35,626 nucleotides of DNA, from the IMG/VR virus record IMGVR_UViG_2874962485_000008; one strand, given 5' to 3'. Positions 27,001 through 30,000 of this stretch are shown here, piece after piece. Every line of letters begins with the position of its first letter. The stretch's first letter is position 1. The position numbers were made by a program. The DNA is from a virus (taxonomy: Duplodnaviria; Heunggongvirae; Uroviricota; Caudoviricetes).

Positions 27001-30000
27001 GCCTGCGGCAATCAGCGCCAGAACAGCAGCCGACAGGCCGTATTTGATTTTTGCGCTCATGGATATTTATCAGGATTTATCGGCAACAAATAACGAGCCA
27101 ACTTATATACGCCTTTTAAGATAAGTCAGCCCCGGCTGGATCCAGTCATCAGGCTCTTTCTTAAAGGGGGAGTATTGAAATCACGAAGAAGAGCCTCCCG
27201 CACCGCAGCATCCATGTCTGCACCACTGGCAAGTGCTTCAATCTCTGCCGCCACCTGCAAATACCCCATGCAACGGCCAATGCGTTTCATAACTCTGGTG
27301 TTTTCGTCTTTCAGGCATCTGATAGCGAGATTAATAATTTTCAGGCAGTGATGATGCGATGCCCGGACAGGTTTTCCGTTCTCATAAACGACGAACTCAC
27401 CCTCTTCACAGGAAACCCTGAAAGGCCGATGGGGTTCCTGGTCTTTATCCGGTGCAGACGCAATAAAATCACTTTTATGCTCTTCCTCTCCGGCACTGTT
27501 AACCGTAATGACGTACTCAGGCCGCAGGTAAGCCGCCTCTTTTTCTGACAATGCGGCCGGTAAAAACTTTTCCTGCAAAAACTTCATAAAAGTCTCGTGA
27601 GCGACTTTGTGGCAGTAATCGTAAATCGCCGCATAATGCTCATCGCGGCGTTTGTTTTCATCTTCAGAACTCACCAACGCCGACAATTTTTTATTAAGCT
27701 CAGTGATTTCATTTTCCAGGTGATTGAATCGCTGATTCATTTCTTCATGCTTCATTATTTACTCTCCCCGTGCAGCCTTACGCTTGTCTTCTCTTATTTT
27801 GAAATACAGATTCGTCAGATAAGTCAGAAGCCCCAGAAGCAGACTTCCCAGCACACCAATCGCAGCCCACTGTGATGGCCTGACCTGATCCAACCACTGC
27901 AAAAACCAGTAGCCGGCACTGCCGGCGGAGGTGCCGTAGGCAATGCCCGTTGAAATTTTGTCCATGGATTTCATAGCCTCACCTCCGCAAATAACGGATG
28001 GCGTAGTTTTACACTGAGAAATGAAAGGGATTTGAAAAGAAAAAAACGCAAAAGCGGGCGAAACGATATATACAGTAAGGAAAGCACTCTATCCAACAAA
28101 CCACCCACAGTTAATCGGAATAAAAGCAGAGTGCTTATGAATGATCGCACGCCCGAAGGTTAGTATTTCTGCACAGCAATTTTGCAAAAAAAGGCGATCA
28201 TTCATAACTTAAACGTCTTTCAGTCACTCCGGGATTTCCCATCATCGCAGACTGAAAGACTCTGACTGGAGCGGGCAGCGGGAATCGAACCCGCATCATC
28301 AGCTTGGAAGGCTGAGGTAATAGCCATTATACGATGCCCGCATATGGTGCCGACTACCGGAATCGAACTGGTGACCTACTGATTACAAGTCAGTTGCTCT
28401 GCCTGCTGAGCTAAGTCGGCGCTGGCCCACCACCGAGGACTCGAACCTCGCACCGTCAACTTAGAAGGTTGATGCTCTATCCGGATGAGCTAGTGGTGGT
28501 TGGTGGCCCTTGCTGGACTTGAACCAGCGACCTGGCGATTATGAGTCGCTCGCTCTGACCAACTGAGCTAAAGGGCCGGAGGCAGAATAATAACCATATG
28601 TCATCACATCTGCAAACTCATCTGACCACCAGCGTGTTTAACGTCCTGTACCGTTTTTCAGGCATAAAAAACCCGCCCGGAGGCGGGTTTAAGCTGTGTG
28701 GCGAAGCAACCACTCTTAACAGAATATCCCGTTTTTTACGTACGTAAAATATTTTCTAGAAAGTCGCCCCTTACCATCAGGGATGTTCAATATATTTGTC
28801 CATTTCTAACCGGACACCCAACATCATCAACATTCCTTCCACCACCCCCTCGGCTTTTTGTAGCTTCTTTCCTATATAACCATCTGAGCATCCATGCTTC
28901 CGCGCCAGCGTCATGAATGTCATCCCAAACACGTAGTAGTCAACCAGCAAGTCATGTAGATCGTTGTTGTTCCGGTTAAGGCGGGCCATACACCCACATA
29001 TAACCATCGCGTCATCGTCACAGCATTGCGGGCGGGATTTTACTTTTGAAGGGATTAATCCCTTAAAACCGGCAGCAATGGACGACCAGGTCACATCCTC
29101 ATGATTATTAGCCACCCACGCGCCCCAGCGCTCAAGAACCTGCTGAATATCACGCATCACTGTCTTTACCCCTGTCCCATCCACGATGAACAATCAGAAC
29201 ACCATCAACAATGGCGTGCCCTTTGCCCTCTTTATCTTCAGCATATTTTCTTACCGTGGCGCGATTACAGTTCAGCATTCGTGAAACTTCGGTCATATTA
29301 CCTCGTGTCTGGATAAGCAGTTCCGGTATCGTTTGAATTTTGACGCTCATCAAATACTCTCCGGTTCGGTGATTTTTATCCCGGGCTTTCCACCAGGGAC
29401 ATAATGATCGCGCACAAGCCAGGGCAAAACAAACTCATGGCGCATCAGCGCAGCGCCTCCTGCACCAGTTTTTCAAACTTTCCGACTCTGGTTTCCAGCT
29501 CTGCCACACAGTCCACCAGCTCATCTACTGCTTTCTGTGCGCGATGCTTCGCCTGCATCAGTTCCCGAAGCGCGGGTACCATATCTTTACGGATAGCATC
29601 TTTTGTTATGCCCGTTTTTTCGAGTTGTTCAGCATGACGCAGCATTTCCTGCGCGTGTTTACGCAATTGTTCAGGGGTAAAAGTCATTGTCTGGTTGTTC
29701 AAAAGAAACGCTCCATCTTACTGCTGTCAGTTCGTTTATTACTGTATCTGCGCGGATTGCCGGGCTTCATGGGAGTGGAAAGCACCCGTGCACTTTCCTG
29801 GTCCACAGGCAGAAAATGTCCGTTATAAAAACGCCGGTAAATCGTTCCCAGAGAACCGTTACGTTGTTTCGTGATATTGATTTCTGCGATGCCCCTGGCC
29901 TGCGTATCCGGGTTGTACACTTCATCCCTGTAAAGCATCAGAATGATGTCTGCATCCGCCTCTATTTCTCCGGAATTTTTCAGGTCTGAGTTCATGGGAC

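Follow-up and report, generated by a model that had tools for sequence, protein, structure and literature searches.

Genes for tRNAs downstream of the antiterminator gene Q have been known in lambdoid phages since the 1990s. The ileZ-argN-argO cassette of the Stx phages (933W, Sakai Sp5, Stx2a_F349) occupies the same position and strand as the cluster described here, after Q, pR' and tR' and before the lysis genes. A gene for tRNA-Thr(UGU) downstream of Q has been reported for SfI, Sf6, ST64T, PS3 and phage 21, and for SfI it was explained by codon supply, ACA making up 17.3% in the phage as compared with 7.1% in the host (PMC3636060). More recent work, on the other hand, proposes defence evasion, rather than codon supply, as a main reason why phages carry tRNAs at all (PMC12445682, PMC12409363). 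Against this background, we describe four intact rare-codon tRNA genes in a decayed, lambda-like prophage of Shigella/E. coli, located between the late-gene activator Q and the lysis genes and contained in IMG/VR record IMGVR_UViG_2874962485_000008; the whole stretch analyzed, 35,626 nucleotides in length, is referred to as the window (Table 1).

Exactly four tRNA genes were found by ARAGORN in the 35.6-kb window, all of them between 28267 and 28577 on the minus strand, in the order Ile2(CAU)-Arg(UCU)-Thr(UGU)-Gly(UCC), spaced by only 1–3 nt and each with an encoded CCA end. The Rfam model RF00005 recovered the same four genes with scores well above its gathering score of 29 and with E-values of 1e-10 to 1e-13, far beyond chance; with two independent predictors in agreement, spurious tRNA calls can be ruled out. 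Single-tRNA MFE folding failed to reproduce the cloverleaf for three of the four and was thus uninformative, which is why covariance-model alignments were used instead. Pfam places Q on one side of the cluster and the holin gene on the other, with lysozyme and Rz also identified in the layout, such that the minus-strand order is Q, pR' homologue, terminator, tRNAs and holin, and the tRNAs are co-oriented with the late operon. The Q gene is 76.6% identical at the DNA level to that of H-19B; an identical gene is annotated by PGAP as “antiterminator Q family protein”, with a start 36 nt further in. The number of genes, their anticodons and their location between Q and the lysis genes, all proposed in an earlier note made from the sequence alone, are hence confirmed. 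That note did not state the strand, which is minus for all of these features.

Table 1. Features of the tRNA locus and its surroundings, listed in the direction of transcription
Feature	Position	Strand	Evidence
Antiterminator Q, Q21/H-19B family	28777-29193	-	Pfam PF06530, 181.5 bits
pR' homologue, TTTACG-16-TATTCT, predicted start ~28714	28721-28748	-	Alignment to H-19B, Sp5
Intrinsic terminator, candidate tR': AAACCCGCC-UCCG-GGCGGGUUU + U run	28666-28690	-	Sequence, MFE hairpin
Putative cassette promoter, TTGCAG-17-TATTAT	28587-28616	-	Promoter scan, conservation
tRNA-Ile2 (CAU), ileX/ileZ type; ARAGORN label “Met”	28501-28577	-	ARAGORN; Rfam, 70.5 bits
tRNA-Arg (UCU), phage argN scaffold; C1:G72, G73, A20, C35, U36	28423-28499	-	ARAGORN; Rfam, 56.4 bits
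tRNA-Thr (UGU), thrU with U16C and U20C	28345-28420	-	ARAGORN; Rfam, 69.8 bits
tRNA-Gly (UCC), identical to host glyT	28267-28341	-	ARAGORN; Rfam, 64.9 bits
Structured non-coding spacer, 292 nt, tRNA-Gly to holin gene	27975-28266	-	MFE folding
Holin, class II (S21-type), first lysis gene downstream	27759-27974	-	Pfam PF04971, 119.6 bits

Comparison with the host genes, as the earlier note had suggested, resolves the four tRNAs into two groups of different ancestry. The CAU tRNA shares 89.6% identity with K-12 ileX and 96.1% with ileZ of Stx phages, as compared with 69% for metT and 61% for the initiator. Its acceptor stem, GGCCCUU/AAGGGCC, carries C4:G69 and C5:G68, the identity pairs of EcTilS (PMC11947777), at positions where metT has U4 and A5. 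Taken together, the anticodon, the TilS pairs and the greater proximity to ileX than to the Met tRNAs define it as tRNA-Ile2 and rule out an elongator or initiator tRNA-Met; PGAP likewise calls an identical copy of this gene tRNA-Ile, in keeping with its initial reading as an Ile tRNA.

The Arg(UCU) tRNA contains no non-canonical stem pair in the Rfam alignment, in accord with the perfect fold previously ascribed to it. It is 83% identical to Stx argN (UCG), 86% to the UUU variant of Ecol_244, 73% to host argU and 60% to argO. Pairing of 5'-CCACCAC with GTGGTGG-3' in the acceptor stem produces C1:G72, followed by a G73 discriminator and the encoded CCA, and the stem of the type CC(G/A)CCA..., the T arm CGAGG-UUCGAGU-CC(U/C)CG and U15/G48 together assign the gene to the argN scaffold. 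The acceptor and T arms are common to nearly all of the 28 unique sequences of this scaffold found in IMG/VR, which bear the anticodons UCU, UCG, UUU or UAU. The C1:G72 pair is therefore real and, with respect to the host Arg tRNAs, indeed atypical as had been claimed, but it is the norm for the phage scaffold. Arginyl-tRNA synthetase (ArgRS) recognizes A20, C35, U36 or G36 and an A or G discriminator at position 73 as identity elements. All of them are present here: the D-loop AUCCGGAUA puts A at position 20, the anticodon loop reads CUUCUAA and position 73 is G.

Thr(UGU) and Gly(UCC), in contrast to these two, are full-length near-copies of host genes. The former equals K-12 thrU at 74 of 76 positions, both changes (U16C and U20C) falling in the D-loop, and the latter equals K-12 glyT at 75 of 75. 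As a pair they match the thrU-tyrU-glyT operon at 98.7% (megablast) in essentially every E. coli genome, and the UAU that separates them corresponds to the first base after host thrU joined to the last two before host glyT. This 3-nt junction is the only flanking sequence shared with the operon; what follows Gly and what precedes Thr is unrelated to it. The Ile2 and Arg genes would appear to represent old phage lineages, while the Thr-Gly pair was probably captured from the host operon with deletion of tyrU.

The cassette probably has its own conserved sigma-70 promoter, as judged from its sequence and that of its relatives. The candidate consists of a -35 hexamer TTGCAG (28615-28610), a 17-nt spacer and a -10 hexamer TATTAT (28592-28587), with a 9-nt GC-rich discriminator between the latter and the first nucleotide of the first tRNA; the hexamers agree with the consensus at 9 of 12 positions. 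The hexamers stay the same in five phages whose Q modules differ, while the spacer varies, nearly all of 40 unique upstream sequences share the layout, and the motif also occurs in Sakai Sp5. Among 12 representatives less than 75% identical to each other, the information content was 1.12 bits for the -35, 0.70 for the spacer and 0.36 for the upstream sequence, and since the alignment was anchored on the -10, only the conservation of the -35 and of the spacing counts as independent evidence. Host ileX has TATAAT 10 nt upstream. A start site driving the tRNAs has been mapped by dRNA-seq in this interval of the homologous Sp5 (PMC7547250). In megablast searches, homology to other phages seemed to begin only 17 nt upstream of the tRNAs, which suggested that the promoter-like match had arisen by chance; explicit alignments across phages reversed this view.

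Further upstream, the candidate tR' has homologous hairpins with compensatory changes in H-19B, Sp5, PhiR47_1, 689R5 and Ecol_244; a simple terminator scanner missed the hairpin of the window and yet called its Sp5 homologue. It is not the tR' that ends StxS in Sp5 and Stx phages, given its homology to the first hairpin ~25–50 nt after the Sp5 pR' start, and the 258-nt tR'/StxS 3' region of Sp5 found no counterpart at this locus by alignment. The pR' homologue aligns with TTTACG-16-TATCAT of H-19B and Sp5. To relate Sp5 positions to the published ones we applied an offset of +142, which we take to stem from an older version of the record. With this offset, the predicted Sp5 pR' start coincides with the published start (PMC7547250).

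The earlier note considered the tRNAs to be Q-dependent late transcripts. Both pR' and a terminator do precede them, and Q and S share their strand, but given the conserved candidate sigma-70 promoter they are probably not purely Q-dependent. Most likely, they would be transcribed from the promoter directly upstream of tRNA-Ile2, which would be active in the lysogen and, in intact relatives, also by Q-antiterminated read-through from pR' during lytic growth; maturation of the closely packed tRNAs would then be expected to rely on RNase P and 3' trimming. At the other end of the cluster, the 292-nt spacer ahead of the holin gene folds with an MFE of -89.1 kcal/mol (z = -4.07; 0 of 200 shuffles equally stable) and is nearly identical in PhiR47_1 and Ecol_244. 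A search of Rfam up to E = 5 detected no known RNA family in this spacer or in the pR' leader.

Which of the two routes applies here depends on the state of the prophage, which is riddled with IS elements and defective when compared with the prophage of E. coli CFSAN029787. Rz is truncated by an IS, R has a premature stop, a deletion has removed ~2.5 kb along with the 5' part of the small terminase gene, and ahead of the replication genes the original sequence has given way to an IS/intron. A late lytic role at this particular locus is therefore doubtful, leaving the promoter-driven route in the lysogen as the one that would matter.

The cluster was initially regarded as unusual on account of its Thr and Gly genes, a view that did not hold. 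Among 5,426 complete E. coli genomes, 601 contain at least 80% of it, its Ile2-Arg(tct)-Thr-Gly order recurs in 21 of 120 IMG/VR hits, and Thr(UGU) at this position had been published before (PMC3636060). E. coli CFSAN029787 matches the window at 100% identity from Q to the holin and has the four genes annotated by PGAP as Ile, Arg, Thr and Gly, and S. flexneri SFBU1023 harbors three copies of the cluster in one genome, all intact. The cassette is thus common and already annotated in RefSeq and GenBank, real but ordinary. A search of the literature collection consulted, on ileZ/argN/argO and on tRNAs of Shigella ipaH islands, returned nothing useful.

Its relatives vary in their tRNA sequences. 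The Arg(UCU) sequence is identical in 20 of the 120 IMG/VR loci, whereas in 64 the second slot is taken by a UUU tRNA on the Arg scaffold, the common variant of which has C33 and an A51-C63 mismatch; a UUU anticodon also occurs on the thrU scaffold (5 copies). Of the Thr genes in IMG/VR, 23 copies share the C16/C20 allele, which goes together with the UCU form of the neighboring tRNA in 21 of 22 cases, and a Gly allele with the compensatory change C6:G67 to U6:A67 is present in 14, while several copies have stem mismatches or truncations. The linked UCU/Thr-C16C20 haplotype, the origin of the Thr-Gly pair from thrU-(tyrU)-glyT and the conserved, probable promoter are the small additions by which the present analysis refines the existing picture without altering it.

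As for the function of the cassette, its four tRNAs would read AUA, AGA/AGG, ACA/ACG and GGA/GGG, and codon usage was examined with this in mind. Relative to a host baseline of only 39 K-12 genes, ATA, AGA, ACA and GGA are enriched 2.2-, 4.8-, 2.2- and 1.7-fold, respectively, in all listed prophage genes (p between 1e-4 and 1e-8). When the 59 codons are ranked by their within-amino-acid usage ratio in the late genes, seven of the top nine (AGG, AGA, ATA, GGG, ACA, GGA and ACG) are precisely the seven read by the four tRNAs; CGG and AGT are also over-represented there, with no matching tRNA in the cassette. In ipaH, AGA reaches 13.6 per thousand versus 1.1 in the host set. The cognate codons are thus enriched in ipaH and the late genes alike, as the earlier note had suggested should be checked. 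The host core genome uses these codons rarely, whereas the prophage genes and ipaH are enriched for them, so that the cassette would provide genes acquired by horizontal transfer with more of the tRNAs that limit their translation. We therefore favor, as the probable explanation, a late-region cassette of a lambdoid prophage that supplies limiting tRNAs and is transcribed both from its own promoter and by Q read-through. The codon enrichment is by nature a correlation; while the analysis establishes the identity of the genes, their homologies and layout, the conservation of the promoter and the codon statistics, we infer that the tRNAs are expressed, charged and modified and that their carrier benefits from them. 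Lambda grows without such tRNAs, and any benefit should therefore be quantitative. The host has one gene copy each for Arg(UCU), Thr(UGU) and Gly(UCC) and two for Ile2, such that three cassettes in S. flexneri would lift the dosage of the former from 1 to 4 and that of Ile2 from 2 to 5. Should the promoter be active in lysogens, the additional copies might help in translating virulence genes that, like ipaH, are AT-rich and contain many rare codons.

It could be argued that illegitimate recombination with the host chromosome and module shuffling, at a spot prone to recombination in lambdoid genomes, left these tRNA genes behind, devoid of any selected function and as yet uneroded in a decayed prophage. 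After all, Thr and Gly are essentially host sequence, the Q-S interval, in which other phages carry stx, is known both as a mosaic junction and as a site of insertion, the surrounding prophage is visibly decaying, and the mismatched or truncated copies in IMG/VR, as well as the UUU variant with its C33 and A51-C63, fit this view. However, genes of this kind would hardly be expected to stay intact in hundreds of genomes with their 1–3-nt spacing and encoded CCA ends, to undergo a compensatory exchange in the Gly acceptor stem, to retain promoter hexamers next to a drifting spacer, to fit the codon usage of the phages that carry them, or to remain intact in all three copies of a single S. flexneri genome. 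We thus consider an origin without function very unlikely and count the widespread, intact cluster (601 genomes) and the compensatory Gly change in support of selection for function. A more substantial challenge comes from the idea that the cassette mainly replaces host tRNAs destroyed by immune nucleases of competing elements, its copies being resistant or simply in surplus and thereby sustaining late translation. Among such nucleases, PrrC and colicin D attack Lys and Arg tRNAs, and P2 Old cuts chiefly tRNA-Thr(UGU). ThrU is its primary lethal target when P2 interferes with lambda, an effect from which phage-borne Thr(UGU) tRNAs provide rescue (PMC12445682). The PARIS nuclease AriB cleaves Lys(UUU), Thr(UGU), the latter efficiently, and Asn(GUU); replacing U16 of tRNA-Lys by C “significantly impaired AriB cleavage”, and C16 is found in T5 (PMC12409363). 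U16C is one of only two differences between the window Thr and thrU, the other being U20C, with the caveat that the effect of C16 was shown for tRNA-Lys only (PMC12409363). The recurrence of UUU in sister clusters, on the Arg scaffold and on that of thrU, is not explained by codon supply, as AAA is not a rare codon, and the Arg-scaffold form has UAAGUU in place of the AriB site UAAUCA. Moreover, these nucleases favor the ANN-decoding class of tRNAs, to which three of the four belong.

Several observations nonetheless speak against such a role. The Gly tRNA, being 100% identical to glyT, cannot be a resistant variant, and the anticodon arm of Thr, ACUGA-CUUGUAA-UCAGU, is that of thrU, with neither of the paired CNG motifs (C28-U-G, C40-A-G) nor the AriB site U36AAUC|A41 altered, so that the changed cleavage motifs or shortened anticodon stem described for resistant tRNAs (PMC12445682, PMC12409363) are missing. 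No nuclease reported in this comparison targets Ile2 or Gly(UCC), and the codon match, with seven of the top nine late-gene codons, is specific and strong. Few tRNA positions are under as little constraint as 16 and 20, and the two U-to-C changes may therefore reflect neutral drift. On balance, we regard replacement of cleaved host tRNAs as the main function as unlikely. That the cassette is at least partly an anti-Toprim-nuclease device of temperate lambdoid phages, giving prophages Thr and Lys decoders that withstand the PARIS and P2-Old nucleases of rival P2/P4-type elements, also seems distinctly improbable; were it true, expression from the cassette's own promoter would in addition render lysogens partly immune to self-inflicted tRNA depletion. 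Speculative as it is, this reading is the only route by which the cassette would acquire a wider significance, and supply of limiting tRNAs is the interpretation we retain in what follows.

How does this cassette, then, relate to those already described? The resistant tRNAs of virulent phages (tRNA-Lys/Thr/Asn of T5 against PARIS, a phage tRNA-Thr against P2-Old) share with it a phage-borne Thr(UGU), and C16 as in the T5 tRNAs (PMC12409363). They differ in having altered anticodon stems or cleavage sites, while the window Thr has the anticodon arm of the sensitive host tRNA and the Gly is host-identical throughout. From host argU, whose UCU, A20 and G73 it shares, the window Arg departs in its body (73%), its inverted first pair (C1:G72) and U15/G48; the window Ile2 has the TilS pairs of ileX, but the Rfam alignment reveals A27 mismatched with C43 in the uppermost pair of the anticodon stem, where ileX has G-U. 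Of the host thrU-tyrU-glyT-thrT-tufB operon, tyrU and the spacers are absent and the 3-nt junction is what is left. The Asn(GUU)-Thr(UGU) pair of SfI, Sf6, ST64T, PS3 and phage 21 (PMC3636060), with which we compared the cluster by description, also follows Q directly, in Shigella, Salmonella and E. coli phages of the lambdoid or P22-like type, and shares Thr(UGU) and the rationale of ACA bias, but its partner tRNA is a different one. The likeness to the Stx cassette goes further: the first gene is of the same lineage (96% to ileZ), the second is built on the argN C1:G72 scaffold (83%), and the same promoter motif lies directly upstream of the first tRNA. In gene content the two nevertheless diverge, for argN (UCG, U73) reads CGA/CGG whereas the window tRNA with UCU, G73 and a fully paired T stem would read AGA/AGG, argO is absent (60% at best), Thr and Gly are present instead, and no stx follows the tRNAs. 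The closest relatives are the CFSAN029787 prophage, PhiR47_1, vB_EcoS-689R5, vB_EcoM-606R7 and phi467, which have the same order and 95–100% DNA identity from the tRNAs into the holin gene, even though Q modules differ among carriers of the four-tRNA cluster. Within this group, most members (64 of 120 IMG/VR loci, PhiR47_1 and Ecol_244) combine UUU and C33 in the second slot with a Thr identical to thrU, whereas the window represents the less common combination of UCU with Thr-C16/C20.

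ARAGORN predicts four tRNA genes, and no more, in the 35.6-kb window, all on the minus strand, and each is also matched by Rfam RF00005 with 56.4-70.5 bits against a threshold of 29 bits, which confirms in every detail the positions and anticodons that the earlier note had read from the sequence. CCA is encoded in each of the four genes, which are separated by spacers of 1, 2 and 3 nt. The perfect fold and the C1:G72 pair claimed for Arg(UCU) are likewise borne out, with an acceptor stem CCACCAC/GTGGTGG, the discriminator G73 and no mispaired stem position in the Rfam alignment. 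The minus-strand order is NinH, Q, a 199-nt regulatory spacer, the four tRNAs, a 292-nt structured spacer and the holin, past which follow a 209-aa ORF, lysozyme, Rz, an IS3-family insertion, the large terminase and lambda-like head/tail genes. The 292-nt spacer (27975-28266, minus) folds into three long hairpins (-89.1 kcal/mol, z = -4.07), is nearly identical in PhiR47_1 and Ecol_244, and has no match in Rfam; its slot is the site of the stx genes in Stx phages. The 209-aa ORF (27126-27755, minus), between holin and lysozyme, is hypothetical according to PGAP (WP_001300760.1) and has no Pfam match; related phages carry a YdfR/DUF1327 gene in this slot.

Features of the window discussed in the text
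Feature	Coordinates	Strand	Evidence or remark
tRNA CAU	28501-28577	minus	ARAGORN; Rfam RF00005, 70.5 bits
tRNA UCU	28423-28499	minus	ARAGORN; Rfam RF00005, 56.4 bits
tRNA UGU	28345-28420	minus	ARAGORN; Rfam RF00005, 69.8 bits
tRNA UCC	28267-28341	minus	ARAGORN; Rfam RF00005, 64.9 bits
Q	28777-29193	minus	PF06530
S21-type holin	27759-27974	minus	
ipaH (LRR + NEL E3 ligase)	1060-2823	opposite to late genes	
IS3-family element truncating Rz	24908-26130	minus	orfA 25762-26064, orfB 24908-25726
Group II intron domain V/VI	32473-32559	minus	Rfam RF00029, 64.9 bits
RT/maturase ORF, 507 aa	32563-34086	minus	RVT_1 + GIIM; directly upstream of domain V/VI match
IS3-family orfB, N-terminal part	34678-35103	minus	HTH_21
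IS3-family orfB, C-terminal part	31994-32410	minus	rve
orfA of apparently intron-bearing IS3-family element	35130-35468	minus	

The four tRNAs differ in their origin. Gly(UCC) is identical to K-12 glyT at all 75 positions, and Thr(UGU) matches thrU at 74 of 76, the two differences (U16C and U20C) both lying in the D-loop. By megablast, the two genes map to the host thrU-tyrU-glyT-thrT-tufB operon in virtually all E. coli genomes, and the UAU spacer between them consists of the first base after host thrU (t) and the last two before host glyT (at). Such a junction, which by our own arithmetic has a chance of about 1 in 64 of matching, is what would be left if tyrU and its spacers had been cleanly deleted; in the flank comparison, the remaining flanks of the pair show no relation to that operon. 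At least 14 IMG/VR copies of Gly carry a compensatory change, from C6:G67 to U6:A67, which argues for selection on tRNA structure. Arg(UCU) shows only 73% identity to argU and 60% to argO, against 83% to Stx-phage argN (anticodon UCG) and 86% to a UUU-anticodon variant called tRNA-Lys by PGAP in other prophages; its A20, C35, U36 and G73 fit Arg identity under the ArgRS rules. The same scaffold is also found with UCG (Stx argN) and UAU anticodons, and the C1:G72 pair, present as the earlier note had described but there called atypical, is a hallmark of this phage scaffold. The CAU tRNA can be assigned to tRNA-Ile2, which would read AUA once lysidinylated, because it is closest to Stx-phage ileZ (96%) and ileX (89.6%; metT only 69%, initiator 61%), because it has C4:G69 and C5:G68, major identity elements for EcTilS (PMC11947777), and because an identical gene copy is annotated tRNA-Ile by PGAP.

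The cluster resides in a prophage with close relatives. S. flexneri SFBU1023 carries the cluster three times, and one of these copies is 100% identical to the window over 27900-29200, as is a copy in E. coli ECMA0423. The replication-to-Rz segment (31985-26130) is 99.66% identical, gapless, to the prophage of E. coli CFSAN029787, our intact reference. Compared with the latter, the lysozyme stops prematurely (165 versus 177 aa), Rz is cut short by the IS3-family element, about 2.5 kb with a ParDE toxin-antitoxin pair and a KilA-N gene are missing together with the 5' end of the small terminase gene, and IS fragments with a group II intron replace the CFSAN029787-type sequence upstream of the replication genes; the prophage is thus defective. 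The intron (32473-34086) appears to be inserted within an IS3-family transposase. Elsewhere in the window, overlapping ORFs (20881-21504 and 21419-22474, minus) that may represent a frameshifted pseudogene stand where a single portal-type gene is expected in a lambda-like head module, and a left-edge ORF (1-477, plus), just upstream of ipaH, codes for a member of the PEBP family (PF01161, 144.6 bits).

The Q-proximal spacer has homologues in H-19B and the Sakai Stx phage Sp5, and TTTACG-16-TATTCT (28748-28721) corresponds to the Sp5 promoter TTTACG-16-TATCAT. For the Sp5 coordinates we assume a shift of +142, derived from the stx2A coordinate of the older record. Once this shift is applied, the predicted Sp5 start is the published pR' start site, mapped by dRNA-seq (PMC7547250). 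About 25 nt downstream in the window lies an intrinsic terminator (28690-28666, minus; stem CCCGCC/GGCGGG, then six U), whose hairpin is kept with compensatory changes in H-19B, Sp5, PhiR47_1, 689R5 and Ecol_244. Given this pR' homologue and conserved terminator, the tRNAs therefore lie downstream of the pR' terminator, as proposed earlier. The leader (28666-28748, minus) corresponds by homology to roughly the first 50 nt of the late leader (StxS-L) of Sp5 and H-19B and ends at the first hairpin. The window lacks the 258-nt tR'/StxS segment of Sp5; the missing 3' part of StxS-L is the source of the 74-nt StxS sRNA in Sakai. A pR' transcript in the lysogen, if any, would be only ~49 nt long.

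Between this terminator and tRNA-Ile2 we find TTGCAG-17-TATTAT (28615-28587), followed by a 9-nt GC-rich discriminator. Both hexamers are invariant in five phages with different Q modules, whereas about half of the spacer positions vary; of 40 unique upstream sequences, nearly all have this layout. Among 12 representatives below 75% identity, the information content per position is 1.12 bits in the -35, compared with 0.70 for the spacer and 0.36 for sequence further upstream; the -10 anchored the alignment and its conservation is thus not independent evidence. Sp5 carries the same motif, and a dRNA-seq study reported a start site there from which the Sp5 tRNAs are driven (PMC7547250). In the host, the 5' end of ileX is likewise preceded by TATAAT, at a distance of 10 nt. 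Most likely, then, the cassette has its own constitutive promoter of the stable-RNA type. The earlier view of the tRNAs as Q-dependent late transcripts accordingly holds for their position, but Q-dependent read-through would be an additional input to their transcription and not the sole one; in the defective prophage, the putative promoter is probably the only route that matters.

Codon usage, which the earlier note had suggested as a check, matches the anticodons. Across all listed prophage genes, relative to 39 K-12 core genes (15,054 codons), ATA (2.2-fold, p 2e-4), AGA (4.8-fold, p 1e-8), ACA (2.2-fold, p 5e-8) and GGA (1.7-fold, p 7e-5) are enriched, and AGA in ipaH alone reaches 13.6 per thousand versus 1.1 in the host set. 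When all 59 degenerate codons are ranked by their within-amino-acid usage ratio in late genes versus host, the top nine are, in order, AGG (6.8), CGG (3.6), AGA (2.9), ATA (2.6), GGG (2.2), AGT (2.0), ACA (1.7), GGA (1.7) and ACG (1.6). Except for CGG and AGT, these are the codons readable by the four tRNAs if host-type wobble modifications are assumed, so that seven of seven fall within the top nine (hypergeometric probability ~1e-7, a rough value that ignores correlations between codons); in Stx phages, the class of codons to which CGG belongs is served by argN(UCG). The ranking provides specific, though correlative, support for a codon-supply model.

Alternatively, the phage tRNAs could offset the loss of host tRNAs to P2-Old or to the AriB nuclease of PARIS, which we consider unlikely; it is the sole reading that, if true, would make the cassette more than routine. 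In P2-lambda interference, the main lethal target of P2-Old is tRNA-Thr(UGU) (PMC12445682), which is also a prime target of AriB, alongside Lys(UUU) and Asn(GUU) (PMC12409363); resistant phage tRNAs rescue from both P2-Old (PMC12445682) and AriB (PMC12409363). However, the anticodon arm of the window's Thr is that of the sensitive thrU and keeps its paired CNG motifs as well as the site U36AAUC|A41, excess host ThrU gives little or no protection against P2-Old (PMC12445682), and Gly is fully host-identical. Yet U16C, one of only two Thr substitutions, was shown to impair AriB cleavage of tRNA-Lys and is also noted in T5 (PMC12409363), and the C16/C20 form of Thr shows tight linkage to the UCU haplotype among the IMG/VR matches listed. 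In addition, UUU anticodons recur in sister cassettes, including a thrU-bodied tRNA (G35U) at five or more loci; codon rarity cannot explain them, because AAA is not a rare codon, and these shifts hint at selection by tRNA-Lys-targeting nucleases.

As to its distribution, 601 of 5,426 complete E. coli genomes contain the 361-nt cluster over 80% or more of its length, and copies with 95-98% identity are found in phages PhiR47_1, vB_EcoS-689R5, vB_EcoM-606R7 and phi467. When IMG/VR was scanned using the 3' half of the Arg scaffold, at least 120 loci were returned; among the 120 matches listed (L016-L135), at least 64 have Ile2-'Lys'(UUU)-Thr-Gly, at least 21 the window's Ile2-Arg(UCU)-Thr-Gly, and other combinations, including one Stx-type, are fewer. 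The second-slot UUU variant, also seen in two further related loci (L005:3095-3171 and L002:4095-4171), combines the C1:G72 scaffold with C33 (loop CCUUUAA, very unusual), an A51-C63 mismatch and U73. The exact Arg/Lys-Thr junction occurs only in S. flexneri and E. coli among GTDB species representatives. Since Thr(UGU) downstream of Q has been described, with an ACA codon-bias rationale, in SfI, Sf6, ST64T, PS3 and phage 21 (PMC3636060), and given the genomes and phages just named, the four-tRNA set is neither new nor rare, and its exact sequence is already annotated in public genomes; the content reported in the earlier note stands, its unusualness only in part. By function and position, the cluster is a member of the known lambdoid late-region tRNA cassettes: with ileZ-argN-argO of Stx-converting phages it has two gene lineages and the promoter in common, but it lacks argO and has Thr and Gly in addition.
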